Assembly (NCBI GenBank): GCA_045651985.1 | Contig: JAZRTK010000026.1 | Span: forward strand, 173,102 to 237,101 | Source: Eubacteriales bacterium | GTDB taxonomy: Bacteria; Bacillota; Clostridia; Oscillospirales; CAG-272 | Reading direction: 5' to 3' | Length of the DNA: 64,000 nt | Shown: one piece after another, positions 3,799 to 22,525 of the stretch | How positions within the stretch are numbered: position 1 is the first letter of the stretch | How the letters are laid out: every line of letters begins with the position of its first letter | Made by a program: the position numbers and the translations under genes | Notes under the pieces: generated by a model | What the model was told of the DNA's origin: nothing | The model's input: the letters and a program-made list of their open reading frames with translations, nothing else | Databases searched by the model: none

Positions 3799-4914
3799 TT
3801 ATTTTGCGCCAAAGAATGCGAGGATAAGACCGCCCGCGATAACAGACGCGATCTGACCCGATACGTTTACGCCGATAGAATGCATGAGCAGGAAGTTCTG
3901 GGGATCCTCGTCCTGACCCATCTTGTGAACGATACGGCCCGACATGGGGAATGCGGAGATACCTGCCGCGCCGATCATGGGGTTGATCTTTTCCTTTAAG
4001 AACAGGTTGAGGAACTTTGCAAAGAACACGCCGCCTGCCGTGTCGAAAATAAATGCGAAGAGACCGAGACCCAGGATCATTAAAGTGTTAAGAGACAGGA
4101 ACTTGTCCGCCTGCATCTGAGTCGCGACGGTGATTCCGAGGAAGATGGTAACCAGGTTTGCAAGGACCTTCTGTGCTGTCTCGGAAAGAGAATCAAGCAC
4201 GCCGCACTCGCGTATCAGGTTGCCGAACATAAGGAATCCCACAAGGGAAACCGATGCGGGAGCGATAAGACCTGCAACGATAGTGATAACGATGGGGAAC
4301 AGAATTCTGGTGGTCTTTGAAACCGACTTCTGGGTGTAGGGCATGCGGATCATACGCTCTTTCTTTGTGGTGCAGAGCTTGATGATCGGAGGCTGGATAA
4401 CGGGAACCAGAGCCATGTAAGAGTATGCCGCCACCATGATAGCGCCCAGGTACTTGGAGCCCAGCTGCTGTGCTACGACGATAGCCGTAGGACCGTCAGC
4501 CGCGCCGATGATGGCGATAGACGCCGCATCGTTGGGGTCAAAGAACATAGAAGCCGCGCAGAGGGTAAAAAATATACCGAACTGTGCCGCTGCGCCAAAC
4601 AGCATCAGCTTGGGATTTGAGAGCACGGGACCGAAGTCGATCATAGCACCGATACCGATAAAGAGTATCAGGGGGAAGAGCTCGTTTGCTATACCCGCCT
4701 CATAGAGCGTGGTAAGCGCGCCTTCTTCGCCGATAGCGCCCGACATAGGGATATTTACAACAAGCGCGCCAAAGCCCATGGGAAGCAGGAGAGTGGGCTC
4801 CATTTTCTTGGCAATGGCAAGGTAGATAAGTACTCCGCCTATCAGCCACATGACGATCATTTTCCAGTTGTCGCCGCTGAAAAGCAGTAGCAGGTTTTCG
4901 TAAAGAATTTCCAT
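3799..4914 (-). CDS. Sodium ion-translocating decarboxylase, beta subunit (OadB/MmdB/GcdB family)
   Basis: 371 aa polytopic protein with family-typical sequence throughout. RBS AAGGAG. Confidence 0.88.
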   Translation of the reverse strand: MEILYENLLLLFSGDNWKMIVMWLIGGVLIYLAIAKKMEPTLLLPMGFGALVVNIPMSGAIGEEGALTTLYEAGIANELFPLILFIGIGAMIDFGPVLSNPKLMLFGAAAQFGIFFTLCAASMFFDPNDAASIAIIGAADGPTAIVVAQQLGSKYLGAIMVAAYSYMALVPVIQPPIIKLCTTKKERMIRMPYTQKSVSKTTRILFPIVITIVAGLIAPASVSLVGFLMFGNLIRECGVLDSLSETAQKVLANLVTIFLGITVATQMQADKFLSLNTLMILGLGLFAFIFDTAGGVFFAKFLNLFLKEKINPMIGAAGISAFPMSGRIVHKMGQDEDPQNFLLMHSIGVNVSGQIASVIAGGLILAFFGAK

Positions 4915-4937
4915 TTTAGACTCCTTTTTTAAACTTC

Positions 4938-4964
4938 ACAATTATTTTAACACAAAATAATTGT
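4938..4964. promoter_or_regulatory. Perfect 11-bp AT-rich inverted repeat in the decarboxylase-beta leader
   Basis: ACAATTATTTT-AACAC-AAAATAATTGT, 24 to 50 nt upstream of the start codon at 4914. Confidence 0.35.
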
Positions 4965-4984
4965 TTTTTCAACATCTTTTTCAA

Positions 4985-5030
4985 ATAAAAAAGACTTTTG
5001 GGAGAGCATTTGTGCTTTCCCAAAAGTCTT
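4985..5030 (-). terminator. Intrinsic terminator after pyk
   Basis: 18-bp stem (one mismatch), 4-nt loop, T-run on the minus strand. Confidence 0.8.
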
Positions 5031-5130
5031 GCATTTTAATTTCCCGCCGAGAGACGGTGACCGCCTCTGTGATGACGCCGAGAACACGGACGCGTAAGGA
5101 TCCGTTTGCTACTCCCTTTTGGAGGGTATT

Positions 5131-6543
5131 TTAAACAGTTTCGACCTTTATCAGGTTTGTGTTGCCCGAGGCGCCGTTGATGTCGCCCGCGGTCATGACC
5201 ACGCTGTCGCCTTCTTTTAAGTGCAGCGCTTCCTTTGCCGCCTTTAATGCGTGGTAGAAAAGGACGTCGGTGGAGTTGAAATGCTCGGTTAGCACGGGAA
5301 GCACGCCCCAGGAAAGGGCAAGCTTATACCACACCTTCTTGTTTACCGCCATGCCCACGATGTCGGTAGGCGAGCGGAAGCGGGAGACCATTCGAACGGT
5401 CATTCCCGACATGGAGGTGACGACGATGGCCTTGGCTCCAATGTCGATCGCCATTCCGCAGGTGGCGTGGGAAATGGCATCGGCGCGGTTCTTTATCTTG
5501 AACTCGTTGTTCTTGAAGCGCGTTGCGTAGTGAATGTGCTTTTCGGTCTCCTCCACGATCTCAGCCATAGTCTTTACGGTCTGAACGGGGTATTTGCCCG
5601 CCGCGGACTCACCCGAGAGCATAACGGCGCTTGTGCCGTCGTAAACGGCGTTGGCAACGTCCGAAATCTCGGCTCTTGTGGGACGGGGATTCTGTATCAT
5701 GGATTCAAGCATTTCGGTTGCGGTAATGACTCTCTTGCCAAGCAGTCGGCACTTTGTAATAAGATATTTCTGCAAAGCAGGAAGCTCGGTAAAGGGGACT
5801 TCAACGCCAAGGTCGCCTCGACCTATCATGATGCCTGAGCATTCTTCGCATATCTGTTCGATATTGTCAATACCCGACCGGTTTTCTATTTTTGCGATAA
5901 TGTCGATGCTGTCGCCGCCGTGCTCGTGCAAAAACGCTTTGAGGTCAAGCAGGTCCTCGCGGCGGGAAACGAATGACGCGGCAATAAAATCCACCTCGTT
6001 TTCGATTCCGAAAAGGAGGTCGGCTTTGTCCTGCTCGCTCAGATAGGTCTGTTTTAAGACCTTTCCGGGAAAGCTCATGCTCTTTCTGTCAGACAGCTCA
6101 CCGCCGACCACAACTCGGCATATGACATCGGTGTGGGTGATCTCCTTTACCTCAAAGATGACCAGACCGTTGTTCACTAAAATTCTGTCGCCTATGGAAA
6201 GGTCGTTTACAAGTCCCCCGTAGTTGACCGAAACGCGGGTGCTGTCGCCCTCAACGTCGGAGACGGTAAAGGTAAACTCGTCGCCGTCGCAAAGGGTTAT
6301 CTTGTGATCGCGGAAGGTCTTTATACGGTATTCGGGGCCCTTGGTGTCAAGCATAATGGCGATGGGAAGATTCAGCTCTTCCCTCACCTTTTTTATCATT
6401 TCGATGTTTTCCTTGTGCTGTTCGTGTGAGCCGTGGGAGAAGTTGAGACGCGCCACGTTAAGACCCGCTCGGCACATAGAGGTGAACACCTTTTCGTCCC
6501 TGCTGGCAGGGCCTATGGTGCAAATAATCTTTGTCTTTCTCAT
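5131..6543 (-). CDS. pyk: Pyruvate kinase
   Basis: MRKTKIICTIGPAS..MLDTKGPE..IMIGRGDLGVE motifs, 470 aa. Confidence 0.95.
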   Translation of the reverse strand: MRKTKIICTIGPASRDEKVFTSMCRAGLNVARLNFSHGSHEQHKENIEMIKKVREELNLPIAIMLDTKGPEYRIKTFRDHKITLCDGDEFTFTVSDVEGDSTRVSVNYGGLVNDLSIGDRILVNNGLVIFEVKEITHTDVICRVVVGGELSDRKSMSFPGKVLKQTYLSEQDKADLLFGIENEVDFIAASFVSRREDLLDLKAFLHEHGGDSIDIIAKIENRSGIDNIEQICEECSGIMIGRGDLGVEVPFTELPALQKYLITKCRLLGKRVITATEMLESMIQNPRPTRAEISDVANAVYDGTSAVMLSGESAAGKYPVQTVKTMAEIVEETEKHIHYATRFKNNEFKIKNRADAISHATCGMAIDIGAKAIVVTSMSGMTVRMVSRFRSPTDIVGMAVNKKVWYKLALSWGVLPVLTEHFNSTDVLFYHALKAAKEALHLKEGDSVVMTAGDINGASGNTNLIKVETV

Positions 6544-6574
6544 TTTATAGCCTCAATTTTTTAAAATCCAAGGT

Positions 6575-6603
6575 ATTATACCTTATAATCCAAGTTTTTT
6601 CAA
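6575..6603 (-). promoter_or_regulatory. pyk promoter
   Basis: Minus strand TTGAAA-17 nt-TATAAT. The -10 sits inside the palindrome AAGGTA-TTA-TACCTT. Confidence 0.6.
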
Positions 6604-6639
6604 GGGGTTTTAAGAATTTTTGCGCCACTTAAACACAGT

Positions 6640-7212
6640 TTAGCGCAACAAGCCCCAAAATGCAATAATTATAAGGACAATACCGCCTGCAAGCTCGGCT
6701 TTTGACTTGTGCTTCGAACCAAAAACATTGCCCAGACCCACCCCCGCAAAGCTTGCGATAAACGTCACCAGACAAATGATAGCGCAGGCGCAAAGGATGT
6801 TTAGGAGAGGGGTCATGTGTGAGTTGAGAATAATAGGCTCCATGGCGAATGCTACGCCCACGGCAAAAGCATCGATGCTGGTCGCCACGGACATGGCGAG
6901 CATGGTGCCCGCGTCTAAGCGCGGGTCGGCTTTTTCTCCGAAAACAAAGGATTCGCGTATCATTTTTGCGCCGATAAAGGTCAGAATGACAAAAGCTATG
7001 AATGGCGCGGCGACTCGAACGTATTTTTCAAAGAACGCCCCGAGCAAATAGCCCAGAAAGGGCATCAGCCCCTGAAATCCGCCGAACCAAGCACCGCACA
7101 AAAGCGCACTTGACGTATCTACACGCCGCATGGAGAGTCCCTTGCAGACCGAGACCGCAAAGGCGTCGGCAGATAGGGCGACAGCTTCTATCAAAACAAG
7201 CAAAAGTCCCAT
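6640..7212 (-). CDS. mntP: Manganese efflux pump MntP family
   Basis: 190 aa, duplicated SxDAFAVxV motif (LSADAFAVSV, TSIDAFAVGV). Confidence 0.85.
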   Translation of the reverse strand: MGLLLVLIEAVALSADAFAVSVCKGLSMRRVDTSSALLCGAWFGGFQGLMPFLGYLLGAFFEKYVRVAAPFIAFVILTFIGAKMIRESFVFGEKADPRLDAGTMLAMSVATSIDAFAVGVAFAMEPIILNSHMTPLLNILCACAIICLVTFIASFAGVGLGNVFGSKHKSKAELAGGIVLIIIAFWGLLR

Positions 7213-7322
7213 TTGTCCTCCAGATTTTCAACTTTTTGTTTTCATTTTACCACTTGCTTGGTGCGAAGTTGGCATAATTTTGTCACCAAGTCAGTAAAAT
7301 TTTAAAAAGGAGGATTTTTGCC

Positions 7323-7856
7323 ATGTTTTTAGTAAAGCCTTACAACAGAGAACGGGCGGTAGAGTATGCCCGACGCTGGGCGCTGTCGAGAAACCCGCTT
7401 TTTGAGAATTTTTCGGGAATTGGCGGCGACTGCACCAATTTTGCTTCCCAATGCGTGCTGGCGGGATGCTGTCAGATGAATTACACTCCGACTTTTGGGT
7501 GGTATTACGTGTCGTCCTCTGACCGCACGCCCTCCTGGACGGGCGTGGAATTTTTCTACGACTTTATGACGACAAATGAGGCAGAGGGTCCCTTTGCCAC
7601 CGAGGTGCGCCGCCGTCAGATACGTCCGGGCGACCTTATTCAGCTGGCTGACTCATCGGGGGATTTTTACCATACGCTGGTGGTCAGTGAGATAACGGGT
7701 ATGCAGATCCTCGTCTGCGCCCACTCCCAGGACTCCCTTGACCGTCCGCTTTCTACATACGATTACGCCACCGCTCGATTCTTGCATATTGAGGGTGCGC
7801 GGGTAGAAGTCGAGGACGAGTGCTTTGAGGGGCTCATTGAGGGGACGTCATTATAA
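7323..7856 (+). CDS. Putative amidase-domain protein (Amidase_6-like)
   Basis: 177 aa; GGDCTNFASQCVLAG Cys motif and YHTLVV His motif. Confidence 0.55.
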   Translation: MFLVKPYNRERAVEYARRWALSRNPLFENFSGIGGDCTNFASQCVLAGCCQMNYTPTFGWYYVSSSDRTPSWTGVEFFYDFMTTNEAEGPFATEVRRRQIRPGDLIQLADSSGDFYHTLVVSEITGMQILVCAHSQDSLDRPLSTYDYATARFLHIEGARVEVEDECFEGLIEGTSL

Positions 7857-7860
7857 CAAA

Positions 7861-7897
7861 AACTCGGCGGTAATATACCGCCGAGTTGGCTTTTATT
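7861..7897. terminator. Bidirectional terminator between convergent genes
   Basis: AACTCGGCGG-TAATATA-CCGCCGAGTT followed by a T-rich tract. Confidence 0.8.
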
Positions 7898-9377
7898 TTC
7901 TGTGATATAACGAGCGATTTTCGTATTTGGGCTCGGAGCTTGTGTTAATGCCCAGCTTTTTGTAGGTCTTTTCGTCAACCGATGACAAAATAACCGAGAA
8001 GTGGGCATCGCAGGAACGCAGAAGCGGAAGCGCGTTCATAGCCGCCTTTGCTTTCTCGCTGTAAACCGAGCTTGCCGCCAAAGCTATGAGCACCTCGTCA
8101 GAATGGAGACGGGGATTCTTGTTGCCAAGGGCGCCTGTTTTAAGGGCACAGATGGGTTCAAGAGTTCGGGCGTCGATGAGGTCAATGCTGTCGTCGATGC
8201 CCGCCAGATATTTGATGGCGTTAAGAAGGAGCGCGGCGGAAGCGCCCAGAAGGCTGGAGGTCTTGCCTGTAACGATGGTACCGTCGGGAAGCTCCATGGC
8301 TCCTGCGGGCTTGCCCGTTTCCTCCGCCTTTTTCAGCGACGCGGCGATGGCGGGACACACATCGCGGGTCACGTGTGCCTGCTGCAGCAGCAGCTCGTGC
8401 TTTGCCAAGAGACTTGGGGGTGCGTTGTGGCCTGCCACGTCCTTTGCGGCGCCAAAGTAACGGCGAAGCATTTCCTTGCCTGCCGCCTCGTTGCACACGG
8501 CATCATCCGTGATGCAGAATCCGACCATATTTACGCCCATATCCGTGGGGGATTTGTAAGGACATTCGCCCAAGATTTCGGTCATCATTGCCTGAAGCAC
8601 GGGGAAGATCTCAACGTCGCGGTTGTAATTTACCGCTGTCTGACCGTAAGCCTCCAGATGAAAAGGATCGATCATATTTACGTCGTCAAGGTCGGCGGTT
8701 GCCGCCTCGTAGGCAATATTTACAGGGTGCTTCAAAGGCAGATTCCACACGGGGAAGGTCTCGAATTTTGCGTAGCCCGCCTTAACGCCTCGCTTGTTTT
8801 CGTGGTAAAGCTGTGACAGACAGGTTGCCATTTTTCCGCTGCCGGGTCCGGGGGCCGTAACGACCACCAAAGGACGTTCGGTCTCAATAAACTCGTTTTT
8901 GCCAAAGCCCTCGTCGCTGACTATCGTCTGCACATCCGAGGGGTAGCCGGGGATCGAATAGTGAAGGAAGCTCTTCATTGAAAGATCGCTCAGTCTGTGT
9001 CTGAACTTGTCGGCGCCCGACTGTCCCGCATAGCGGGTGATGACCACGCTTCCAACGTAAAATCCAAGGCTTCGGAAGATATCGATAAGGCGAAGGGTGT
9101 CGTCGTCGTAGCTGATGCCAAGGTCGCCGCGGAGCTTGTTTTTTTCTATATCGTCGGCGTTGATCGCGATGATTATCTCAACCTCGTCGCGGATCTTTGC
9201 CAGCATTTTGATCTTTGCGTCAGGTTCAAATCCCGGCAGAACTCGGGACGCGTGGTAATCGTCAAAAAGCTTGCCGCCAAACTCCAGATAGAGCTTGCCG
9301 CCAAAATCCTCAATGCGCTCCCTGATGTTTCGGGATTGTATCGTCATATATTTTTCGCAGTCAAAACCGATCTTCAT
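7893..9377 (-). CDS. DUF1846 / UPF0371 family protein
   Basis: MKIGFDCEKY..HASRVLPGF family N-terminus. Start moved to 9377 (RBS GAGG) because the predicted -10 at 9410-9415 puts the TSS at or after the ATG at 9404. Confidence 0.8.
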   Translation of the reverse strand: MKIGFDCEKYMTIQSRNIRERIEDFGGKLYLEFGGKLFDDYHASRVLPGFEPDAKIKMLAKIRDEVEIIIAINADDIEKNKLRGDLGISYDDDTLRLIDIFRSLGFYVGSVVITRYAGQSGADKFRHRLSDLSMKSFLHYSIPGYPSDVQTIVSDEGFGKNEFIETERPLVVVTAPGPGSGKMATCLSQLYHENKRGVKAGYAKFETFPVWNLPLKHPVNIAYEAATADLDDVNMIDPFHLEAYGQTAVNYNRDVEIFPVLQAMMTEILGECPYKSPTDMGVNMVGFCITDDAVCNEAAGKEMLRRYFGAAKDVAGHNAPPSLLAKHELLLQQAHVTRDVCPAIAASLKKAEETGKPAGAMELPDGTIVTGKTSSLLGASAALLLNAIKYLAGIDDSIDLIDARTLEPICALKTGALGNKNPRLHSDEVLIALAASSVYSEKAKAAMNALPLLRSCDAHFSVILSSVDEKTYKKLGINTSSEPKYENRSLYHRK

Positions 9378-9486: not shown

Positions 9487-11742
9487 TTATTTTTGGATAA
9501 ATTCCATTGCGCACTCCGCATCGCGCCGTGCGAGCTGTGAAAGCTCGCCTTGGCGAGCTCGGACCTTATTGCAAAGATCTTTTCGCACTTCCATTGTTCG
9601 TTCTGCGCGAGTGACGATGTCATCGGAAGTAAAATTGCTCATGTCGATAGGCTCGTCGTGTCCCGAATATTCAAGAAACGCGCTGATCTTGGGGTCGTAT
9701 GAGATTCCGATTGCGGGAATGCAGGCGTTTGTGGCGTAAATGAGCATGTGAAGTCTCATTCCGACGGCAAATTCCATGTGTGAAAGGAGTGCCGTAAGCT
9801 CACGGGCACTAAGACCTTGTGCTAATATTGTCTTTTTTCCGCTGAGCCGTTCAAATTCTCGGCAGACGGCTCGGCTGATCTCAAGGTCGGCAACATTCTG
9901 GACCGAGACCACCAAGGGCAAAAGTCCAAGTCGGCGGCAGATCTCGCTCATTGAGAGAGCGATCCGCCGAGTGAATTCGGATTTTGACATATCTCCGCCC
10001 GTTTTGAGGTTTTCGTATTCTCTTACGGAAAGGGCATAGTATTTGTTGTTCTTTGCGTCGATTCCCAGCTTATTCTCGATATAAGCCAGACGGCTGCCGT
10101 CAATAGGCTTTACCGTCAGAGCGGGGTCGGCGGTAACGGCTATCTCCTGTCGCGCCTCAAGTCCTATTTCGCGGAGAAATTCAAGGGAAGAAGGCTCGCG
10201 GAGACTGATAAGATCCGCCTCGCCCAGCACTTTTTTTACCTTTGCCACGCTTCGCTCGCCGTAGACCGGACCGATGCCGTTTGAATAGACCATGACGGGC
10301 AGTTTTATACGCACGGCCATTTTAATTATGGTGATATAGTAGTTTAAGGACTTTTCACTGGTGTTGTTTTGGAGGAGGGAGCCGCCGCCGCTTATAAGAA
10401 GCTTTGCGCGCCTCATCTCGCGGCAAATTGCAAAAACGTTCAGTCGGTTTATGCAGCGAACGCCGTATTTGAGCTGTGATTTTTTCGGGTCCCTTGTAAG
10501 AGCCGTTATTCTGACGTGGGGGTCAATCGCGCGAAGCTGGGCGGCTATAGACAGGAGCAGAGAATCGTCGCCCATGTTGCCAAAGCCGTAGTAGCCCGAC
10601 AGGATAACGTCGGATTCATTTCTGTACTCGTAAGGGCGAAGGCTTTCGTAGACTGCAAGACAGTCACAAGCCATGCGGTGTGCCGAATAATTTTCCTTAA
10701 TTATAGCTCTGTTGCCCTCGCCGATGCGCTCAAGCTCGGCATCCGATAAGTCCAGAAGCGCGGAAAGGTCGGAAAACAGCCTCTCGGGACTTGACTCCTC
10801 GCAGCCGCGGCAACAAAAGTTTGTGGCGACGGCAACATCAAGCCTGTCACCCTCGGGACGTCCGATGTAGCCCTCGTTTCCAGCGACGATCACGGGCTTT
10901 GATGCGCTCATGGCTTCAAGCGCGGCGCGTGAAACGCCCACGAACAGATCGCCAAGCGCCACCAAATTATTAATGTCGGTGCGACCGCCCGTCGCATGGA
11001 CGAATTTTTGACCCGCCGCCCTGTTCGCTTTTTTTGCAAGCTCACAAACGCTTTCAAGGTCGTCGCCGCCGCCGACAATAACCAGTTGCAGATCGGGGTG
11101 CTTTTTCTTCAGTGCAGGAGCAATCTCGCACAGCTGACGGGCAACCAAAGAGCGGTCTGCGTCCATGCGGCTGACGTAGACGATGGTTCTGCGCTGTTCG
11201 GGGAGACCAAGCTCCCGCGCAATATCATCTGACGGCGTGTCGGGGGAAAATTTCTCCATATCGACGCCGTTTATGGTCACCGAAATATTGTCCGAATAAA
11301 CGCCGTAGGAGTCGATGAGATACTGCTTTATGTCCTCGCTGACCGCCACCGTTTTCTCGCCCCAGAAGGCTATCTTGCGCCAAAGGGCGTTTACGTCAAA
11401 GACCCAGTGTGCGGTGGTAACAAAGCGGAATTTCAAAACGGGTTGAAGCAGACCGCACACGAACGCGGGAATTCGCGCATGGGCGTGGACTATATCATAT
11501 TTTTCTTTTTTTATCAGCTTTTTCAGGGCAAAATACGACTTTGTGACTCCGGTTGGCATCTTTGTGTGGAGCGGAATCTTCACGTGCTTTATGTTGCAAG
11601 CCTCAAGCTCGCGCACGTAAACGCCGCCGTTTGATGCCACCGTCACGTCGTGACCCATGCTGCGGAGCGCTCTTGACAGCTCAAGAACGTGTGTCTCCGC
11701 GCCTCCGATGTCAAGCGCCATCGCGCACATTAATATTTTCAT
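9487..11742 (-). CDS. csaB: Fusion: family-4 glycosyltransferase (N) + polysaccharide pyruvyl transferase CsaB (C)
   Basis: N-terminus MKILMCAMALDIGGAETHV (GT4). C-terminal half ILSGYYGFGNMGDDSLL (CsaB-like). The track's start at 11784 is a TTG inside pgsA, so ATG 11742 is preferred. Confidence 0.75.
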   Translation of the reverse strand: MKILMCAMALDIGGAETHVLELSRALRSMGHDVTVASNGGVYVRELEACNIKHVKIPLHTKMPTGVTKSYFALKKLIKKEKYDIVHAHARIPAFVCGLLQPVLKFRFVTTAHWVFDVNALWRKIAFWGEKTVAVSEDIKQYLIDSYGVYSDNISVTINGVDMEKFSPDTPSDDIARELGLPEQRRTIVYVSRMDADRSLVARQLCEIAPALKKKHPDLQLVIVGGGDDLESVCELAKKANRAAGQKFVHATGGRTDINNLVALGDLFVGVSRAALEAMSASKPVIVAGNEGYIGRPEGDRLDVAVATNFCCRGCEESSPERLFSDLSALLDLSDAELERIGEGNRAIIKENYSAHRMACDCLAVYESLRPYEYRNESDVILSGYYGFGNMGDDSLLLSIAAQLRAIDPHVRITALTRDPKKSQLKYGVRCINRLNVFAICREMRRAKLLISGGGSLLQNNTSEKSLNYYITIIKMAVRIKLPVMVYSNGIGPVYGERSVAKVKKVLGEADLISLREPSSLEFLREIGLEARQEIAVTADPALTVKPIDGSRLAYIENKLGIDAKNNKYYALSVREYENLKTGGDMSKSEFTRRIALSMSEICRRLGLLPLVVSVQNVADLEISRAVCREFERLSGKKTILAQGLSARELTALLSHMEFAVGMRLHMLIYATNACIPAIGISYDPKISAFLEYSGHDEPIDMSNFTSDDIVTRAERTMEVRKDLCNKVRARQGELSQLARRDAECAMEFIQK

Positions 11743-11767
11743 GCGTTGATTTTCGCCCTCGCAAATA

Positions 11768-12373
11768 TTATTTTTGGGGATCAAGGAATTTCCAGTAGGA
11801 TTTGAGGTAATTTACGCCCGAAAGAACGGCGAAGAAGGTAGAGACCGCCATGGAGAGGTAGGTAAGCACGTGGTAATCGTATTTGACCAGATCCATGCCC
11901 GATACGAGGGATGCCACCTCAAATATAACAGGCTCAAGAAGCGCGCAGAGAATAAAGATTATCTGGGAGACGGTCTTGATCTTGCCCAGCATATTTGCCG
12001 CAACCACAACTCCGCTTCCGCTTGCGACCAAACGGATAGAGGTGACCGCCAGCTCGCGGAAAACGACTACTGTCGCGGCGATGGTAAGGCAGATCTGCAA
12101 AATTCCGTCGAAACGGAAAATGAGCATCATCATAGCGCCGATCACCATAAACTTATCGGCCAGAGGGTCAAGGAACTTGCCGAAATCCGTAATAAGGTTG
12201 TGGCGGCGGGCGATTTTGCCGTCAAGCATGTCGGTGAAAGAAGCCGCGCCGAAAATAAGTGCGGAGATGACGCCCCACGCAATAGTATTCAGGGGCAGGA
12301 GCATAACGACCATGATTACGGGGACCATAATAAGACGGAGCACCGTCAGCTTGTTGGGTAAATTCATCTTCAT
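11768..12373 (-). CDS. pgsA: CDP-diacylglycerol--glycerol-3-phosphate 3-phosphatidyltransferase
   Basis: DMLDGKIARRHN..FGKFLDPLADK CDP-alcohol phosphatidyltransferase motif. Confidence 0.9.
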   Translation of the reverse strand: MKMNLPNKLTVLRLIMVPVIMVVMLLPLNTIAWGVISALIFGAASFTDMLDGKIARRHNLITDFGKFLDPLADKFMVIGAMMMLIFRFDGILQICLTIAATVVVFRELAVTSIRLVASGSGVVVAANMLGKIKTVSQIIFILCALLEPVIFEVASLVSGMDLVKYDYHVLTYLSMAVSTFFAVLSGVNYLKSYWKFLDPQK

Positions 12374-13815: not shown

Positions 13816-13844
13816 TTGATAAATCTCCCCAAATAGTGTATAAT
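13816..13844 (+). promoter_or_regulatory. Promoter of the GTPase-NYN gene
   Basis: TTGATA-17 nt-TATAAT. Confidence 0.6.
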
Positions 13845-13876
13845 TGACCTATTAAGAGAAAAGGGGGAGAAATGCC

Positions 13877-16474
13877 GTGGAAAACAACAGAAAAAAGGCG
13901 GCAGTTGGCATACTCGCCCACGTTGACGCGGGAAAGACCACGCTTTCCGAGGCTCTGCTTTTTTGCGCGGGAGCGTTGCGTAAGATCGGCCGCGTGGACC
14001 GCGGCGACGCTTTCCTTGACAATAATGATATTGAGAGGGAGCGCGGGATAACCGTTTTTTCAAAGCAGGCGATGCTTTCATTTCCCGAAACGGATATTAC
14101 CCTCATCGACACTCCCGGTCACGTTGACTTTTCGGGCGAGGCGGAGAGAACCCTGGCGGTTCTTGACTACGCGGTTCTCGTGGTAAGCGGCAGCGAGGGC
14201 GTGCAGTCACATACCAAGACTATCTGGAATCTGCTTTGCCACCACGGTGTGCCCACGTTTGTCTTTGTTAACAAGATGGATATTTCGTTTTATGAGACCG
14301 CCGCTATTATGAGGAGCCTGCGCAACGCGCTGGATAGCGCATGCGTGGATTTTTCCGACACGTCGTCTTCCGAATTTTGCGAGGAGGCGGCAAGCCTTGA
14401 CGAGAATATTCTTGAGAGCTTTCTTGACAGCGGCGAGGTCAAGACGGAGGATCTGCAGAATGCAATTCTGGGCAGACGCATAATTCCCTGTTTTTTCGGA
14501 TCGGCGCTGAAAAACGAGGGTGTTGAGGAGTTTGCCGCGGGGCTTTGTAAGTATATTAAAGCGAAAAAGTACCCCGACACCTTTGGCGCGCGGGTTTATA
14601 AGATCACGAGAGATGCGAAAAACGCAAGACTGACTCACTTGAAAATTACGGGCGGCACGTTGGCGTCAAAGATGATGATAGGCGAAGAAAAGATCGACCG
14701 GATCAGATTTTACTCGGGCGAAAAATTCACCACCGTCGAAAAAGCGGAAGCGGGGGATATCTGCACCGTCACGGGGCTTAACTTGACCTACGCGGGTCAA
14801 GGTCTTGGCTTTGAAATGGAGGGGGGACGCCCGAAAATCGAGCCGATTTTGGCTTATAGCGTCAAAATTCTTGACGGCACTGCGCCCGCAATAGCTTACG
14901 ACCGCTTAAAGCTGCTCTGCGAGGAGGATCCGCTTTTGGCAGTCAATTGGGACGAACGAGCGCAGGAGAGCGGAGTTCGTGTCATGGGCGAGATCCAGCT
15001 GCAGGTGCTTCGCCGCACGGTCCGTGACCGATTTGGTATCGAGATAGACTTTGGCGCGGGGCGCATTGTATATAAGGAAACTATTCGCGGGTCGGTTGAA
15101 GGCGTGGGACATTTTGAGCCTTTGCGACACTACGCCGAGGTACACCTGCTCCTTGAAGAAGGGGACGAGGGCAGCGGACTTGTTTTTGACACCCTATGCT
15201 CGGATAAGATCCTGACACAGAATCTCCAGCGACTTGTGCTGACGCACCTAGCGGAAAAGACCCACCGCGGCGTTTTGACAGGCGCACCCATTACAGACAT
15301 GAAAATCACCTTGATTTCGGGCAAGGCGCACTTGAAGCACACCGAGGGCGGCGACTTCAGACAGGCGACATACCGCGCGGTGCGTCAAGGGTTGATGAAG
15401 GCGGAAAGTGTGCTTCTTGAGCCATATTACGACTTTGAAATAACCGTCCCCGCCGACGCGGTGGGGCGTCTCATGAATGACATAAACCGTATGGGCGGAG
15501 ATTTTGAAATAAAGGATGCGGGCGAATGTGAGACCACCTTGACGGGAAGCGCGGCGGTGTCCGAGCTTCGGGAATACCCCCGTGAGCTGACCGCATATAC
15601 CCGTGGCGAGGGCAGAATTCTTCTGACACTTTCGGGCTATCGACCTGCTGTACGTCAGGACGAGATCGTGGCGGCGTCGGGCTACGACCCCGAATCGGAC
15701 CTGCGAAACAGTCCCGATTCGGTCTTCTGCTCGGGCGGTGCGGGCTTTAACGTAAAATGGGATCAGGTTGAGGAATATATGCACATAGAGGGCTGCGATG
15801 GCAGCGAGCCCGAGCCCGTGGAAAGCGCTGATGCGCTTCCCGCGACCCGACGCCGCCGAGGTGTGTCCTACGCCGACGCGTTGGCGCTTGACAAAGAATT
15901 GGTTAGCATTTTTGAGCGGACCTACGGGCCCATTCGGCGTAAAAAAGTCAGCGACGGCCCCACCAGACGGGATTACGACGAAAAAAAACCGCCGAAAAAG
16001 CCTAAAAAAGAGGCTTCTGTCCTGCCAGAATTCGTTCTGGTGGACGGTTACAATATAATTTTCGCTTGGGACGACCTGAAAAAGATCGCCCAGGACAATC
16101 TGAACCTGGCTCGCAAGCTTCTGACCGACATTCTCTGCAACTATCAGGGCTATCGGGGCTGCGGCTTGATTCTTGTCTTTGACGCCTACAAGGTGGCAGG
16201 CGGACGGGGCTCGGTTGAAAAAGAGGGCGGGATAAGCGTGGTCTACACCAAGGAGGCGGAGACCGCCGATGCGTACATCGAACGCGTGACCTACGAGATC
16301 GGCAAGAAGTATCGCGTGCGCGTTGCGACCTCTGACAATCTGGAGCAGATAATCGTCTTGGGTCACGGCGCGGAGAGAGTTTCGGCCAGGGCCTTTTATG
16401 ACGAGGTGAGGAAAGTTGCCTCGGAGATATCCGACGAGGTGGAAAAATTGAATCGCTCCGCCAAGCCCCTTTAA
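13877..16474 (+). CDS. Translational GTPase (TetM/TetO/EF-G-like, aa 1-~640) fused to a YacP/Rae1-type NYN ribonuclease domain (aa 718-865)
   Basis: GTG start with RBS AAGGGGGAGA. G motifs AHVDAGKTT, DTPGH, NKMD. C-terminus VLVDGYNIIFAW..LILVFDAY..ETADAYIE..VATSDNLEQ matches Rae1/YacP. Confidence 0.85.
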   Translation: MENNRKKAAVGILAHVDAGKTTLSEALLFCAGALRKIGRVDRGDAFLDNNDIERERGITVFSKQAMLSFPETDITLIDTPGHVDFSGEAERTLAVLDYAVLVVSGSEGVQSHTKTIWNLLCHHGVPTFVFVNKMDISFYETAAIMRSLRNALDSACVDFSDTSSSEFCEEAASLDENILESFLDSGEVKTEDLQNAILGRRIIPCFFGSALKNEGVEEFAAGLCKYIKAKKYPDTFGARVYKITRDAKNARLTHLKITGGTLASKMMIGEEKIDRIRFYSGEKFTTVEKAEAGDICTVTGLNLTYAGQGLGFEMEGGRPKIEPILAYSVKILDGTAPAIAYDRLKLLCEEDPLLAVNWDERAQESGVRVMGEIQLQVLRRTVRDRFGIEIDFGAGRIVYKETIRGSVEGVGHFEPLRHYAEVHLLLEEGDEGSGLVFDTLCSDKILTQNLQRLVLTHLAEKTHRGVLTGAPITDMKITLISGKAHLKHTEGGDFRQATYRAVRQGLMKAESVLLEPYYDFEITVPADAVGRLMNDINRMGGDFEIKDAGECETTLTGSAAVSELREYPRELTAYTRGEGRILLTLSGYRPAVRQDEIVAASGYDPESDLRNSPDSVFCSGGAGFNVKWDQVEEYMHIEGCDGSEPEPVESADALPATRRRRGVSYADALALDKELVSIFERTYGPIRRKKVSDGPTRRDYDEKKPPKKPKKEASVLPEFVLVDGYNIIFAWDDLKKIAQDNLNLARKLLTDILCNYQGYRGCGLILVFDAYKVAGGRGSVEKEGGISVVYTKEAETADAYIERVTYEIGKKYRVRVATSDNLEQIIVLGHGAERVSARAFYDEVRKVASEISDEVEKLNRSAKPL

Positions 16475-16541
16475 AAAGGGGCTTGGACTCCCCAAACTAA
16501 AAGGACAAAAACGATGGCTAAATGCCATCGTTTTTTGTTTG
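16461..16541 (+). repeat. Two-hairpin 3'-end cassette, copy B
   Basis: CCAAGCCCCTTTAAAAAGGGGCTTGG..CCCCAAACTAAAA..AAAAACGATGGC-TAAAT-GCCATCGTTTTTTGTTTG. Contains the stop codon of the GTPase-NYN gene. Confidence 0.9.
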
Positions 16542-16694: not shown

Positions 16695-16859
16695 GTAAGC
16701 ACAGTGAAAGACTGCCGGATGTTCATGCCATCGGAACGGATTGATATCCGATGACAGCTAAGTCGGGTATGAGCGACAATACGGACCGACGTGGCGGCAG
16801 ATTGAAGGCAGCCGACTTCACTTAAAAAAAATATATTTTTTTGAAGGAGAAACAAAACT

Positions 16860-19800
16860 ATGAAGAATTTTAACAAAATTCTTGCTCTGGTGCTCGCTCT
16901 CATGATGCTCATCAGTGTAGTTGTAGTAGTTCCTGCAAGCGCTGCAGAAGTTACATTCAACACAACTGCTCTTGAGCGTCTTGTAAAGCTCGGCATCTAC
17001 AAGGGTTACGGCGCTAACGAGCTTGGCGAGAATGACGACGTAACTCGTGAGCAGATGGCAATGTTTGTTGCACGTGTTTCCACCGGTAAGGTTGCAAACG
17101 ACGCATGGGCAAACTTTGTTAACGACACACCTTTCAAGGACATCGCTGATCGTCCTGCAGTAAACATCGCAGCAATCGCTTACGCTTATGATGAGGGTAT
17201 CATCATCGGTAGATCCGCTGACGTGTTCGATCCTAAGGGCAACGTATCCTACCAGGAAGCGCTCACAATGGTAGTTCGTGCACTCGTTGGTTACGAAGAG
17301 ACAAAGAATCTCAAGTATCCTGAAGGCTTCATCAACGCAGCTATTAAGATGGGTCTCACAGAGGGCATCTCCGGCGTTGCATACGCTGACAAGGCAATCC
17401 GTGGCGTAACAGCTACAATCCTCTACAATGCACTCAATGTTGAGTATGTTGAGTGGAGCTGGGGTCCTTGGGAGCAGATCAACACATTTGCTAACAAGTT
17501 CAACCTTTCCACAGGTAAGTACATGCTCACATCTGTAACAGAGGAGCGTTACCTTACTTCTCTTGACGTTAAGAACGATAAGAAGCAGGAGTTCACTCAG
17601 ACATTCCCCGGCACAAACGCTTGTGTTGACGGCGACTACGTTGTATTCACAACTCTTAATGACGATGTAACTCTCGATGCAACAGCTGACAGAGTCGTTC
17701 TTGCAGCTGAGCTTGCTGATGACCTTGGTGCAGACCTCGCAAAGAAGATCGGCTACGTTTACGACCTCACATTCGAGGGCGAAAAGCTCGCATGGGTTGA
17801 CGAGTACGCTGGTACAACATACAAGGACTATGGTAAGACAGAGAACAAGATTACAACAACAACCGTTAAGGACGAGGGCGTTAACAAGACAGTTCTCGTT
17901 GTAGACAATCAGAAGTATGACAATACTGTTGATAAGGTTGATCTTGAGTCCAAGAACCCCACAAAGGTTTATGACCTCCGTCTCTTCGAGTACAACAAGA
18001 CCGCTATGGCGGACGGCGTTGCATTCGTAGCTAAGACTACTCTTGACGGCGTTAATGACAACAAGTTCCAGGAAGTTACTCTCTTCGATACCAACAAGGA
18101 CGGCATGTACGACTACGGTATCTATGCTCCTTACTACATTGGTAACCGTACCACAAAGAAGGATGGCAACAGCGTAGAGCACTTCAATATGCCTACAGCT
18201 GCTGATTATGATTTCCAGACAAAGACAAGCTCTTCTGTTGATACTAACTCTGCATACAACATGACAAAGAGCTGGAACCTCCAGGGCAACCTTACAAAGG
18301 TTTCCACATGGGATAGACTCTATGTTTACAAGGTTAACCCCGTTTCCATGGACATTGACGTTATCCAGGAACTTAAGCGTACAACTGTTGGTAGCCTGAC
18401 AAAGATCGTTAACGACGCTCTTACAGGCGCTCTTAAGACCGTTACAGTTGGCGGCAAGGAGTTTGCTAACATCAACGTGCTCACAGACGTTGACCTTAAG
18501 GGTGTTGAAGGCGCTATCGCGTTCGAATACGCTGACAGAATGCCTACAGAGCTTCGTGCTGCGAACCCTGTTGCAAGCTGGGAGGGCATTTTCGAGGATA
18601 TCATCGGTAATCCCGGATACGGCGAAATGCAGATCCACGAGCTCGCAGGCTACACTCTCATCGGCTGGCCTACTTTCGTTCGCAACTACAAGTTCGTAGC
18701 ATTCGACTGGGCTGACGCTGTATTCTCTATGGAGGATAATATCCTCGTTGTAGACCGCGCTCTTACAGATGCATCCGGTAACTACAAGAAGATCAAGATC
18801 GCTTCTATCGACAACGGTATAGGCGGTGTTGCATGCAAGACCTTCGACGCAATGGAGATCGAAGCATTCTTCAACACTATTGATGTTCTCTACGGTCCTC
18901 AGGCCGATCTCAACCAGTACAACATGTACTACAACGAAGCAAGACGTGCAGCTATCATGGCTACTGAAGAGTACGCTAAGCAGCTCCGTCTCAACATCAT
19001 GGAAGAGATCAACGGTGCAGTTGACGGAACACCTGAGTTCTATGCAATCACAGGTCAGGACGCAGCCGGCAACCTCAAGCTCACAGACGTTGACTATGAT
19101 AACCTCGCTCTCGTAAGCTACGCTACGAGCAAGCAGAACAACAATAGCACAGTTAAGACAAATACTATTGAGTTCATCAATGGTATTGCTAAGGGCCAGT
19201 TTGCTACAGATTCCCAGGATACAAAGATTGTTTCTAAGTCTTCCAACATCGTTGTTACAGATTCTACTGTATTCACGATCGTTGCAGCTGACGGTATCTT
19301 CACATTCACAGGTAAGCCCGACAACGGCGATAAGCTCGATCTCGTGAAGGCTACAACATTCCTTATCGCAGCTAACACTTCCGAGATCATGCTTGTTGAT
19401 ACAACTCGTTCCATCAACCAGATCGCTCAGGGCGACGTTGAGTACGTTGGCAAGTTCCTCACTGTTGACAACCAGTTCGAGAAGAAGGTAATCACAGACA
19501 CATGGGCATTCAACGCTAACACTAACAACTGTCCTCAGGGCTTCAAGTGGCTCGTTGACAACGCTTACCTCATCACATCTGATACTAAGCTTGAGACTGT
19601 TACACTTGACGGTGTAGTTATCTACACATACACTAACCTCTATGACCTCGTAGCTTGCAAGAATGTTGAAAAGACATTCACAAAGGCGCTTGACCTCACG
19701 ATCGGTAAGGTTGTTGTAGTTGACAGAGTTGCTGGTATCGTTGAAAACGCAACTCTCGCAAGCGTATTCCACGAATACGGTGCAAACAACGTTAACTGGA

Positions 19801-20021
19801 CAGAAGACACTTACGTTGGTAAGTTCGTATCCGGTTCTACTGTTGGTTACTACGAGTTCGCTAATGCTGGTAAGCTCATCGGCGTAACTCCCAGCTTCGT
19901 AATCATCACACGTACTTCCAGCAAGGTAACTGTTTCCACAACGATCGGTGACCTTAAGGAAGACGCAACCGTTTACTACACATTGGTTAACGGTGTTCCC
20001 ACAGGTTACGCTATCCAGTAA
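16860..20021 (+). CDS. S-layer protein with signal peptide and three N-terminal SLH domains
   Basis: Signal peptide ..VPASA/AE. SLH-like segments at aa ~33-195. Strong codon bias. RBS GAAGGAGA. Confidence 0.85.
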   Translation: MKNFNKILALVLALMMLISVVVVVPASAAEVTFNTTALERLVKLGIYKGYGANELGENDDVTREQMAMFVARVSTGKVANDAWANFVNDTPFKDIADRPAVNIAAIAYAYDEGIIIGRSADVFDPKGNVSYQEALTMVVRALVGYEETKNLKYPEGFINAAIKMGLTEGISGVAYADKAIRGVTATILYNALNVEYVEWSWGPWEQINTFANKFNLSTGKYMLTSVTEERYLTSLDVKNDKKQEFTQTFPGTNACVDGDYVVFTTLNDDVTLDATADRVVLAAELADDLGADLAKKIGYVYDLTFEGEKLAWVDEYAGTTYKDYGKTENKITTTTVKDEGVNKTVLVVDNQKYDNTVDKVDLESKNPTKVYDLRLFEYNKTAMADGVAFVAKTTLDGVNDNKFQEVTLFDTNKDGMYDYGIYAPYYIGNRTTKKDGNSVEHFNMPTAADYDFQTKTSSSVDTNSAYNMTKSWNLQGNLTKVSTWDRLYVYKVNPVSMDIDVIQELKRTTVGSLTKIVNDALTGALKTVTVGGKEFANINVLTDVDLKGVEGAIAFEYADRMPTELRAANPVASWEGIFEDIIGNPGYGEMQIHELAGYTLIGWPTFVRNYKFVAFDWADAVFSMEDNILVVDRALTDASGNYKKIKIASIDNGIGGVACKTFDAMEIEAFFNTIDVLYGPQADLNQYNMYYNEARRAAIMATEEYAKQLRLNIMEEINGAVDGTPEFYAITGQDAAGNLKLTDVDYDNLALVSYATSKQNNNSTVKTNTIEFINGIAKGQFATDSQDTKIVSKSSNIVVTDSTVFTIVAADGIFTFTGKPDNGDKLDLVKATTFLIAANTSEIMLVDTTRSINQIAQGDVEYVGKFLTVDNQFEKKVITDTWAFNANTNNCPQGFKWLVDNAYLITSDTKLETVTLDGVVIYTYTNLYDLVACKNVEKTFTKALDLTIGKVVVVDRVAGIVENATLASVFHEYGANNVNWTEDTYVGKFVSGSTVGYYEFANAGKLIGVTPSFVIITRTSSKVTVSTTIGDLKEDATVYYTLVNGVPTGYAIQ

Positions 20022-20188: not shown

Positions 20189-22525
20189 TCAGGTACTTCC
20201 TATAACATATACGCCGTAGGCGCAGATCCACGCCAAAGCGCACTGAAGAATTACGACTCCCGCCGACCATTTCGCGCCAAGCTCACGCTTAATGGAGGCA
20301 ACAGCCGCCACGCAAGGGGTGTAGAGCAGACAGAAGGTAAGAAGTGCGGCGGCAGCCGCAGGAGTAAGTACGGCTTTGAGAGCTTCTCCCGAGCCGAAAA
20401 GTACCGTCAGGGTCGAAACAACGCTCTCCTTTGCCATAAATCCTGTAACAAGAGCCGTGGAGAACCGCCAGTCCCCAAAGCCGAGAGGTGCGAATATGGG
20501 GGCGACGAAGCCGGAAAGTACGGCTAAAATACTGTCCCTTGAGTCCTGGACCACGCGGAATGTGGGGCTGAAAGACTGCAAGAACCAGATAAGAACGGTG
20601 GCAACAAAAATGAACGTAAATGCCCTCTGCAAAAAGTCCTTTGCTTTCTCCCAAAGGAGTCGGAGGACGTTTTTGGCGGCGGGCATACGGTAGTTGGGAA
20701 GCTCCATTACAAAGGGGACTGCCTCGCCGCGAAAAAGCGTACCGCGAAAGACCAGTGCTGTCAAAATGCCCACGACGATTCCGCCGAAGTAAAGAATGAT
20801 CACTGCCGCGGCTGTGTACCCGGGGAAGAACGTATTTGCAAGAAAGCCGTAAATGGGAAGCTTTGCACTGCAACTCATAAAAGGCGTGAGCAGTACGGTC
20901 ATTTTACGGTCGCGTTCAGAGGGAAGTGTGCGGCTCGCCATGACACCGGGAACGGTACAGCCAAAGCCGATGAGCATGGGGACGATGCTTCGCCCCGAAA
21001 GACCGATCTTGCGCAAAAGTTTGTCCATGATAAAGGCAACCCGAGCCATGTAGCCGCTGTCTTCAAGTATGGAAAGGAAGAAAAACAGGGTGACTATGGT
21101 CGGCAGGAAGGAAAGCACGCTTCCCACACCTCCGAAAATGGCGTCGATCACCAGAGAATGTATTGTTTCGTTTACTTTAAGCGAGGTCAAAAGACTGTCT
21201 GTGGCGTCTGTCAGCGCGCTGATGCCAAGCTCGGTCAGATTTGACAGAGCCAGACCCAAAACGCCAAACGTTAAGTAGAACACCGTCGCCATAATTGCGA
21301 CAAAGCAGGGGATAGCGGTGTATTTGCCCGTGAGCACTCGGTCGATACGGCGGCTTCGCAGGTGGGACTTGCTTTCCTTGGGCTTTACTACCGTATCGAC
21401 GCAAATCTTGTTGATAAACGAGAATCTCATATCGGCAATTGCCGCCGCGCGGTCAAGACCGCGTTCCTGCTCCATCTGACAGATGATGTGCTCGATCATT
21501 TCCTTCTCGTTTTCATCAAGGGACAACTGCTCGGCAATAAGCGTCTCGCCCTCTGCCAGCTTGGTTGCGGCAAATCGAACGGGAATACCCGCCGCCTGTG
21601 CGTGGTCTTCGATCAAATGCATGATTCCGTGAAGACAGCGGTGTACGGCACCTCCCTTGTCGGTGGCATCGCAAAAGTCCTGTCTGCCCGGTCTTTCCTG
21701 GTAACGCGTAACGTGGAGCGCGTGTGAGACCAGCTCGTCGATACCCTCGTTTTTCGCCGCCGAAATGGGAACTACGGGAATGCCGAGGGCGGATTCCATC
21801 TCATTTATGCGAATGGCACCGCCGTTTTCCCTTACCTCGTCCATCATATTAAGAGCCAGCACCATAGGAATGTCAAGCTCCATTAACTGCATGGTCAGAT
21901 AGAGGTTACGCTCAATGTTGGTAGCGTCAACAATGTTTATAATGCCTTTTGGGTGGCTTTCAAGTATAAAATTCCGCGAGACTATCTCCTCGCTTGAATA
22001 AGGGGACATTGAGTATATTCCGGGGAGGTCTGTAACGAGCGTGTCGGGCTTTCCCTTGATGGCTCCGTCCTTGCGGTCGACTGTCACGCCCGGGAAATTG
22101 CCCACGTGCTGGTTTGAGCCTGTGAGTTGGTTAAAAAGAGTGGTCTTTCCGCAGTTCTGGTTACCCGCTAAAGCAAAGGACAGCACCGAGCCGTCGGGTA
22201 AGGGGTCTCCGTCGCCCTTGACGTGGTACTTTCCGTCCTCCCCAAGACCCGGGTGGTGTATCAGACGTTTTCTTTGGGGAGCAGACTCGTGTACTTCGTC
22301 CTCGGCAGGCTCAATTTTGATGTTTTCCGCCTCAGCCAGACGCAGGGTCAGCTCGTAGCTGTTCACACGAACTTCCACGGGGTCGCCCATGGGGGCGTAT
22401 TTCACCATGGTAAGGCGTGCGCTCGGGATAAGACCCATGTCAAGAAGGTGCTGGCGCAGAGCGCCCTCGCCTTCTACCGACAGAATTCTGCCGGATTTTC
22501 CGATTTCCAGTTCTTTCAGTGTCAT
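20189..22525 (-). CDS. feoB: Ferrous iron transporter, FeoA domain fused to FeoB
   Basis: N-terminal ~75 aa is FeoA-like. Then the G domain GNQNCGKTTLFNQLTG and a polytopic C-terminus. Confidence 0.9.
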   Translation of the reverse strand: MTLKELEIGKSGRILSVEGEGALRQHLLDMGLIPSARLTMVKYAPMGDPVEVRVNSYELTLRLAEAENIKIEPAEDEVHESAPQRKRLIHHPGLGEDGKYHVKGDGDPLPDGSVLSFALAGNQNCGKTTLFNQLTGSNQHVGNFPGVTVDRKDGAIKGKPDTLVTDLPGIYSMSPYSSEEIVSRNFILESHPKGIINIVDATNIERNLYLTMQLMELDIPMVLALNMMDEVRENGGAIRINEMESALGIPVVPISAAKNEGIDELVSHALHVTRYQERPGRQDFCDATDKGGAVHRCLHGIMHLIEDHAQAAGIPVRFAATKLAEGETLIAEQLSLDENEKEMIEHIICQMEQERGLDRAAAIADMRFSFINKICVDTVVKPKESKSHLRSRRIDRVLTGKYTAIPCFVAIMATVFYLTFGVLGLALSNLTELGISALTDATDSLLTSLKVNETIHSLVIDAIFGGVGSVLSFLPTIVTLFFFLSILEDSGYMARVAFIMDKLLRKIGLSGRSIVPMLIGFGCTVPGVMASRTLPSERDRKMTVLLTPFMSCSAKLPIYGFLANTFFPGYTAAAVIILYFGGIVVGILTALVFRGTLFRGEAVPFVMELPNYRMPAAKNVLRLLWEKAKDFLQRAFTFIFVATVLIWFLQSFSPTFRVVQDSRDSILAVLSGFVAPIFAPLGFGDWRFSTALVTGFMAKESVVSTLTVLFGSGEALKAVLTPAAAAALLTFCLLYTPCVAAVASIKRELGAKWSAGVVILQCALAWICAYGVYVIGST

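Follow-up and report, generated by a model that had tools for sequence, protein, structure and literature searches.

The present analysis concerns a gene of 865 codons located in a 64,000-nucleotide stretch of an Eubacteriales bacterium genome (contig JAZRTK010000026.1, hereafter the window), which fuses a translational GTPase to an endoribonuclease. At the level of sequence, the N-terminal part is an EF-G/Tet-like translational GTPase that belongs to a clade of its own and is not a resistance determinant, and it is followed at the C-terminus by a Rae1/YacP NYN endoribonuclease with an intact catalytic site. We propose that this protein functions as a GTP-gated Rae1 with hard-wired targeting, which docks on stalled or collided ribosomes and cuts the mRNA there, a reading that we hold with slightly better than even confidence. 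Delivery of the nuclease to the ribosome by the GTPase had been put forward in a preliminary description of this DNA and is kept here as the most economical reading. The architecture is as described there and the catalytic residues are intact. Fusions of this architecture have been known since 2015 and the copy found in the window has no special feature.

The GTPase half has the five-domain layout of EF-G/EF2 (G domain and domains II to V), every Pfam domain being above its gathering cut-off. The G motifs are intact: P-loop AHVDAGKTT, T59 of switch I, DTPGH82, NKMD and GSALK, including the three that the preliminary description had read (AHVDAGKTT, DTPGH and NKMD). Its assignment of both ends of the protein also agrees with the profile searches, since Pfam places the N-terminus among translational GTPases (GTP_EFTU and EFG domains) and the C-terminus in NYN_YacP. 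Conservation was evaluated on 145 diverse fused representatives that are 41-59% identical to the query. In this set, the G motifs, including the catalytic His of DxxGH, are conserved at 94-100%, with 99-100% for K20, T59, DTPGH (D78-H82), K133 and D135. The tip loops of domain IV are family-specific and near-invariant (GHFEPLRHYAE, residues 411-421, and G-x-AH-x-KHTEGGDFR, residues 482-495), and the two 20-residue blocks that include them are the most conserved of the whole protein. H485 aligns with the His of the EF-G domain IV tip loop SYHEVDSS, and, like Tet proteins, the GTPase has a short G′ insert. An AlphaFold2 model (50 sequences, mean predicted local distance difference test score, pLDDT, of 75.9) is confident for domains G to V and for the NYN domain (residues 718-861). 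When this model was submitted to Foldseek, the top matches were ribosome-bound EF-G structures (E 8e-50, template modeling scores of 0.69-0.75 by target length). The orthologue from Agathobacter rectalis (locus L082, positions 5989-8790), which reaches 933 aa, carries in its G domain a low-complexity insertion of ~24 residues (TADTAHTADVACTADTART-like), placed after the switch I region and before DTPGH; its linker is also longer.

The nuclease half matches NYN_YacP (PF05991) with 162.1 bits (gathering cut-off 24.6) over profile positions 1-144 of 166. It is aligned by phmmer with chain residues 3-146 of YacP/Rae1 from Bacillus subtilis (PDB 5MQ8/5MQ9, E 1.3e-22), and in this alignment the four motif pairs given in the preliminary description proved correct residue for residue. 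The acidic catalytic positions, said there to be retained, are all present: D723, D769, D798 and D820 correspond to D7, D53, D81 and D104 of B. subtilis Rae1 and are conserved in 100%, 100%, 99% and 99% of the fused representatives, respectively. Two of them (D723 and D798) are the counterparts of the residues replaced in the published catalytic-dead Rae1 (D7N D81N). Since the GTPase residues, the NYN aspartates and the tip loops are conserved, both enzymatic halves and the A-site-probing tip are under purifying selection.

The NYN domain thus belongs to the same fold family as B. subtilis Rae1, end to end over Rae1 residues 3-146 and with the four active-site aspartates kept. However, Rae1 is a single-domain protein of ~170-180 residues, whereas the domain of the fusion forms the C-terminus of an 865-residue GTPase and is therefore covalently attached to a binder of the factor site. 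The loci also differ. Rae1 is encoded by the gltX-cysS-mrnC-rlmB-yacP operon (PMC5499597), with mrnC and rlmB, upstream of sigH in typical Firmicutes, whereas the fusion is encoded elsewhere by a monocistronic gene. No second NYN match was detected in the 64-kb window nor in 80 homologous loci, a result that is uninformative about stand-alone rae1 because only ~0.6 match would be expected by chance. In a plasmid collection, the Monoglobus and Agathobacter records show the fusion only, these records being partial genomes. A full-text literature search for "DUF901" found nothing.

The two halves are separated by a conserved C-terminal mini-domain of the GTPase and by a composite tether. The mini-domain is characterized by the motif YDPExDxxNxxDSVFCxxGAGxxVxWxxVxxxxH, and its helix, hairpin and helix (residues 594-634) are modeled with confidence by AlphaFold2. 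Neither the mini-domain nor the linker has any Pfam match; NCBIfam gave no match for residues 638-865 and no meaningful PDB sequence match was obtained for residues 592-717. The tether that leads from the mini-domain to the nuclease is ~80 residues long, of which 56 are disordered and ~19 helical in the AlphaFold2 model. Its helix (DKELxxIFERTYGPI) is found only in fused proteins. From the FERTYG motif to the NYN segment, linker 2 included, the median net charge is +4 in 121 homologues, and both motifs of the basic linker reported previously (ATRRRRG...KKPPKKPKK) were found. Furthermore, the spacing between SVFC and DGYN is 104-111 residues in all of the 121 close homologues. The near-constant length of the tether and the conserved helix in its middle would fit a spacer with a geometric role.

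An unfused relative of the GTPase, annotated as "translation factor GTPase family protein", is encoded by megaplasmids of Ligilactobacillus salivarius. This protein of 639 aa is 47% identical to the fusion over residues 3-638. Its domain IV loops are those of the fusion, as is its SVFC/W..H C-terminal mini-domain, which is absent from Tet(M/O/W/B(P)). It differs from the fusion in that it stops directly after the mini-domain, without linker helix and without NYN domain. Because this homologue shares the loops and the mini-domain, the GTPase belongs to a separate EF-G/Tet-like clade with free as well as fused members. In a quick neighbor-joining tree of the GTPase part, made to order fusion and fission, the L. 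salivarius protein pairs with P0269, but the tree does not settle where these two branch relative to the fused proteins. In NZ_CP114507.1, the unfused gene (locus L081, positions 3741-7926) adjoins genes encoding an ArsR/SmtB metalloregulator and a DsbA-family protein, and the same neighborhood includes an extra ribosomal protein S14 gene (rpsN) and a gene for a "putative metal homeostasis protein". These neighbors may hint at a link with metal limitation.

A scan of one genome per GTDB species detected at least 594 confirmed relatives, of which the best 80 loci were kept. In all 80, one frame covers the query from residue ~3 to residue ~860 and reads through the junction. Among the matches listed by a word-indexed protein search, 120 full-length homologues, 55-95% identical to the query, all carry PF05991 and the EF-G domains. 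An exhaustive search found the NYN domain in 146 of the 150 best representatives of 50%-identity clusters; their lengths are 655-1156 residues (median 884), and they are down to 41% identical to the query. The nearest relatives, from metagenome-assembled genomes (MAGs), show 94-95% protein identity and ~85% DNA identity. Most carriers are Oscillospiraceae and other Oscillospirales, but the fusion is also found in Lachnospiraceae, Monoglobus, Acetivibrio thermocellus and Desulfitobacterium. According to the supplement of PMC5327387, the orthologue of Clostridium thermocellum, Cthe_0033, is transcribed and was seen by proteomics with three peptides; the same source gives a ~2.5-fold difference between biofilm and planktonic cells (log2 1.3, adjusted p 2e-18). 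As judged from these comparisons, this is a large and vertically inherited family of Clostridia, and the fusion is real and ancient. A full-length homologue (52% identical over residues 6-841; locus L088, positions 5421-7967) is also present in MT835563.1, a record from human faeces named "UNVERIFIED: Bacteriophage sp."; a phage origin was rejected, as this record most likely corresponds to bacterial DNA in a virome data set.

Fusions of a TetM-like protein with NYN_YacP were reported in Clostridia by Atkinson in 2015 (BMC Genomics, PMC4342817), who proposed to test their RNase activity, and by Matelska et al. in 2017 (NAR, PMC5499597). The sequences of Additional file 8 of Atkinson (Ruminococcus albus 7, Eubacterium rectale, C. 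thermocellum, Desulfitobacterium hafniense and others) belong to the same family. Like the window protein, they have both tip loops of domain IV (GHFEPLRHYAE and AHxKHTEGGDFR), an SVFC mini-domain, a FERTYG helix and the motifs of the NYN domain, in the same architecture; the window protein is a new orthologue from an uncultured lineage of Clostridia, with nothing different in its structure. No functional study of these fusions was found in the literature, searches by the locus tags Cthe_0033 and DSY1131 returned nothing, and the Rae1 papers of 2025 and 2026 do not mention the fusion. The earlier statement that no characterized example is known holds, but the fusion itself had been reported by both publications (PMC4342817, PMC5499597).

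Rae1 is ribosome-associated, and its cleavage is translation-dependent and occurs 12 nt upstream of the stalled A-site codon. The preliminary description had relied on the view that Rae1 cuts in the A site; this view was withdrawn in 2025 by the same laboratory. A 2026 preprint proposes that Rae1 acts on collided ribosomes and feeds tmRNA/trans-translation, and the authors of the 2025 and 2026 papers describe their structural work as still under way.

The ribosome-docked, GTP-gated mRNA nuclease that we propose would act in four steps: (i) the GTP-bound EF-G-like body would dock at the factor-binding site, its domain IV probing the 30S A site of a ribosome unable to progress, (ii) the tethered NYN domain would cut the mRNA outside the A site, (iii) GTP hydrolysis would release the factor, and (iv) the truncated mRNA would be passed to tmRNA/SmpB, which would rescue the ribosomes left on it. 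In the known ribosome structures of EF-G and TetM, domain IV fills the 30S A site and the body lies at the factor-binding site. Because domain IV would already fill it, the tethered NYN domain could not share the A site with the docked GTPase. The most plausible target would thus be exposed mRNA at the entry or exit edge of the stalled ribosome, or mRNA between collided ribosomes. On its ~80-residue tether, the NYN domain might be able to sweep the nearby 30S surface. The mRNA entry side lies near the factor site and, in a collision, the entry of the trailing ribosome abuts the exit of the leading one, the region in which free Rae1 of B. subtilis cuts.

Other systems recruit nucleases or effectors to stalled or collided ribosomes, but they are functional analogues only. 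This is the case of the nucleases SmrB (E. coli) and Cue2/NONU-1 (eukaryotes), whose SMR fold is unrelated to the NYN fold, and of Hbs1-Dom34/Pelota. Hbs1 is a translational GTPase that delivers the A-site factor Dom34/Pelota to stalled ribosomes. In all these systems, unlike in the fusion, GTPase and effector are separate polypeptides or recruitment relies on other domains.

Several points weigh against the proposed mechanism. The RNA substrate (mRNA or rRNA), the ribosomal state that is recognized and the role of GTP are all things that we infer. A stand-alone rae1, if kept in the same genomes, would make the fusion a specialized paralogue and not a Rae1 equivalent. The AlphaFold2 model does not place the NYN domain relative to the GTPase body, and no role is assigned to the conserved helix of the linker or to the C-terminal mini-domain. 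Finally, the idea that an 80-residue tether would reach the mRNA exit side comes from geometric reasoning only.

Among the alternatives, the one that survives best, although we consider it unlikely, is that the nuclease acts on rRNA or tRNA, the GTPase directing it to ribosomes that are immature, damaged or in surplus, with a role in rRNA maturation, in quality control or in ribosome turnover. The operon that NYN_YacP forms with mrnC and rlmB first led to the prediction of a role in rRNA/tRNA processing (PMC4342817, PMC5499597), and no result of our analysis identifies the substrate. This prediction is not reflected in the genomic context of the fusion, whose gene is linked to rRNA-processing genes in none of the 80 loci. 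An EF-G-like body would bring the nuclease near rRNA that is critical for function, namely the sarcin-ricin loop, h44 and H69. However, the NYN domain shares 37-45% identity and its catalytic constellation with stand-alone YacP/Rae1 proteins, which speaks against this alternative.

A second alternative, which we regard as quite improbable, is a modified form of the mechanism of the preliminary description: the GTPase would clear or probe the A site, domain IV would withdraw after GTP hydrolysis, and the NYN domain, kept by its tether at a high local concentration, would then enter the vacated A site and cut the A-site codon. Such a hand-over is made conceivable by the docking of the Rae1 crystal structure in the A site, by the ~80-residue tether, whose modeled flexibility would allow the exchange, and by the basic linker, which could follow mRNA or rRNA. 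Against it, the ribosome structures of EF-G and TetM imply that domain IV and the NYN domain could not occupy the A site simultaneously.

The third alternative, that a TetM-type ribosomal protection protein directed against tetracycline or another antibiotic has gained an RNase domain and constitutes a new resistance mechanism, was suggested by Atkinson in 2015 (PMC4342817) and also appears in PMC5499597. We find it poorly supported and very improbable. The best NCBIfam match of the fusion is indeed the general tet_protect model NF012153 (E 5e-118), and many members are named "TetM/TetW/TetO/TetS family" in RefSeq. As TetM aligns as one co-linear stretch (~590 residues for Tet(M)/Tet(O)), the layout is Tet-like with the same short G′ region; the Tet proteins share with the fusion the five EF-G-like domains and an extension after domain V. 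The term "TetM-like" is appropriate for the layout but not for membership of the resistance family, for which every test that was run gave a negative answer. The match to NF012153 reaches 395 bits for a cut-off of 775, and the one to NF033148 (TetM/W/O/S model) 238 bits for a cut-off of 1100. Identity to Tet(M), Tet(O), Tet(S), Tet(W) and TetB(P), encoded by plasmid-borne genes, is only 27-29%, and in a comparison with PDB sequences EF-G is as similar (228 bits) as TetM/TetO (224 bits).

The tip of domain IV also separates the fusion from the resistance proteins. In TetM and TetO, the domain IV loop that is replaced in the fusion contacts the tetracycline site. In an alignment with Tet(M), Tet(O), Tet(W) and TetB(P), GLYYSPVSTPADFR of the Tet loop is replaced by GKAHLKHTEGGDFR, which is invariant in the fusion family. 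In this loop, the loop III motif of Tet(M)/Tet(O) (Y-Y-S-P-V-S, "YYSPVST") is absent from the fusion, which has GKAHLKHTEGG there (family-invariant GKAHxKHTEGGDFR). Furthermore, the C-terminal extension is unlike that of Tet proteins, and the gene is chromosomal, without leader peptide, attenuator or mobile-element surroundings. The broad divergence within and across orders of Clostridia (41-60% identity) is that of a vertically inherited gene. The fusion resembles EF-G by its top structural matches, by a sequence similarity close to that with TetM and by H485, which aligns with the EF-G tip histidine, but it has a shorter G′ subdomain, a different domain IV loop I and an extra mini-domain, linker and nuclease. 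Hundreds of genomes of gut Clostridia annotate the fusion gene as a TetM/TetW/TetO/TetS tetracycline-resistance protein, and resistome surveys based on these annotations would report too many resistance genes.

The last alternative, an assembly or annotation artefact joining two adjacent genes by a lost stop or a frameshift, has a negligible probability, with nothing found in its favor, and is refuted by the comparative data. The frame is continuous in 80 of 80 independent loci, in isolate genomes and in 146 of 150 cluster representatives. A conserved helix lies within the junction, whose length is near-constant (SVFC-DGYN spacing of 104-111), which excludes the collapsed stop or frameshift at 15790-16030 considered in the preliminary description, and the C. 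thermocellum orthologue was detected as a protein according to the supplement of PMC5327387.

The features of the gene are given in Table 1. The single uninterrupted reading frame with GTG start and ribosome-binding site previously described was found again, the latter being AAGGGGGAGA. Inspection of the sequence around 16000-16045 did not reveal any in-frame start with a plausible ribosome-binding site for a separate NYN protein. The promoter-like site, the ribosome-binding site and the terminator-like hairpin together therefore indicate a monocistronic unit with a short 5′ untranslated region and without leader peptide. The predicted 5′ untranslated region has only ~26 nt and consequently no space for a tet(M)-style leader peptide or attenuator, none of which was seen in the sequence inspected upstream of the GTG.

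Table 1. Coordinates of the fusion gene, its expression signals and the regions of the encoded protein (positions in the window).
Feature	Position	Strand	Details
Sigma-70-type promoter-like site	13816..13844	+	TTGATA-17 nt-TATAAT; 11/12 consensus matches
Ribosome-binding site AAGGGGGAGA	13861..13870	+	Spacing to GTG start of 6 nt
Complete fusion gene	13877..16474	+	865 codons + stop; GTG start; 0 internal stops
G domain, residues 9-228	13901..14560	+	Pfam GTP_EFTU, E 1.2e-47
Domain II, residues 238-308	14588..14800	+	Pfam EF-G_D2
Domain III, residues 339-393	14891..15055	+	Pfam EFG_III
Domain IV, residues 395-510	15059..15406	+	Pfam EFG_IV
Domain V, residues 512-591	15410..15649	+	Pfam EFG_C
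Conserved C-terminal mini-domain, residues 594-636	15656..15784	+	Helix, beta-hairpin, helix
Linker 1, residues 638-664	15788..15868	+	Variable sequence, predicted disordered (pLDDT ~30; AlphaFold2 disorder 638-665)
Conserved linker helix, residues 665-686	15869..15934	+	Motif DKELxxIFERTYGPI; AlphaFold2 helix 665-683, modest confidence
Linker 2, residues 687-717	15935..16027	+	Lys/Pro-rich, predicted disordered (AlphaFold2 disorder 688-715)
NYN_YacP/Rae1-type endoribonuclease domain, residues 718-861	16028..16459	+	Pfam 720-861, E 1.6e-47
Hairpin flanked by A-run and T-run	16507..16535	.	Terminator-like in both directions; closes the monocistronic unit

The gene is surrounded by a RimO/MiaB-like gene, a PgsA-like CDP-alcohol phosphatidyltransferase gene and a gene encoding a surface-layer homology (SLH) protein. 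Besides this RimO/MiaB-like radical-SAM enzyme, the phosphatidyltransferase and the SLH protein, the window encodes pyruvate kinase, FeoAB, triose-phosphate isomerase, phosphoglycerate kinase, MltG, HisS, AspS, Ddl, PrmC, RlmH and a V-type ATPase operon. No mobile element was found in the window, nor did Rfam return any family at gathering score in it. The fusion gene is thus a chromosomal, monocistronic gene of housekeeping type. A role in defense was rejected, as PADLOC anti-phage models gave no family at E <= 0.001. No conserved gene partner was found across the 80 loci by tblastn of the window open reading frames (ORFs) and by all-against-all clustering of three neighbors per side; the upstream RimO-like and PgsA-like genes are shared only by the two closest MAGs (~85% DNA identity). 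A MacB-like protein of 987 aa, in which an ABC ATPase is joined to an FtsX-type permease, is encoded at 55252-58215 (+), and distant relatives (~36% identity) lie at less than 10 kb from the fusion gene in 15 of the 80 loci, at varying distance and side. Since this family is abundant, this co-occurrence is probably a coincidence.

Some other genes of the window deserve mention. A 765-aa fusion of a GT4 glycosyltransferase (residues ~25-304) and a polysaccharide pyruvyl transferase (residues 402-697) is encoded at 9487-11784 (-), ~5 kb from the gene of the 1053-aa SLH-domain protein (16860-20021); this proximity suggests the synthesis of a pyruvylated cell-wall polymer for SLH anchoring. The 984-aa open frame located antisense to the SLH-protein gene (16818-19772, -), with a Cys/Val-rich translation, is most likely a shadow ORF, a by-product of the sense gene's codon composition. 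A single polypeptide of 778 aa (20189-22525, -) combines FeoA, as a domain at residues 1-72, with FeoB. At 40729-45981 (+), a protein of 1750 aa combines leucine-rich repeats of the BspA type with a short segment resembling acetyl-xylan esterases and has no Pfam match elsewhere. Lastly, a BlaR1-type M56 peptidase sensor of 791 aa is encoded at 58261-61003 (-), with a 124-aa ORF overlapping its start, an arrangement typical of BlaR1/BlaI-like sensor-repressor pairs.

A more specific version of the proposed mechanism, possible but rather doubtful in our opinion, is that the fusion is the only Rae1 homologue of these Clostridia and acts as a GTP-gated sensor of collisions. Its EF-G-like body would bind the trailing ribosome, locked in a pre-translocation state beyond resolution by EF-G, and its length-constrained tether would put the NYN domain on the short stretch of mRNA between the two ribosomes, the place of cleavage by free Rae1. 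If so, Rae1-type nucleases would act from the factor-binding side of the ribosome, and the unfused GTPase of the L. salivarius type would be the missing partner that recruits free Rae1 in other Firmicutes. More generally, the fusion family provides a "Rosetta stone" clue to how Rae1 recognizes stalled or collided ribosomes. It suggests where on the ribosome a Rae1-type nuclease works and that GTP may gate cleavage. As a single polypeptide amenable to cryo-electron microscopy and cleavage assays, the fusion offers an attractive handle on the targeting of Rae1 to ribosomes.

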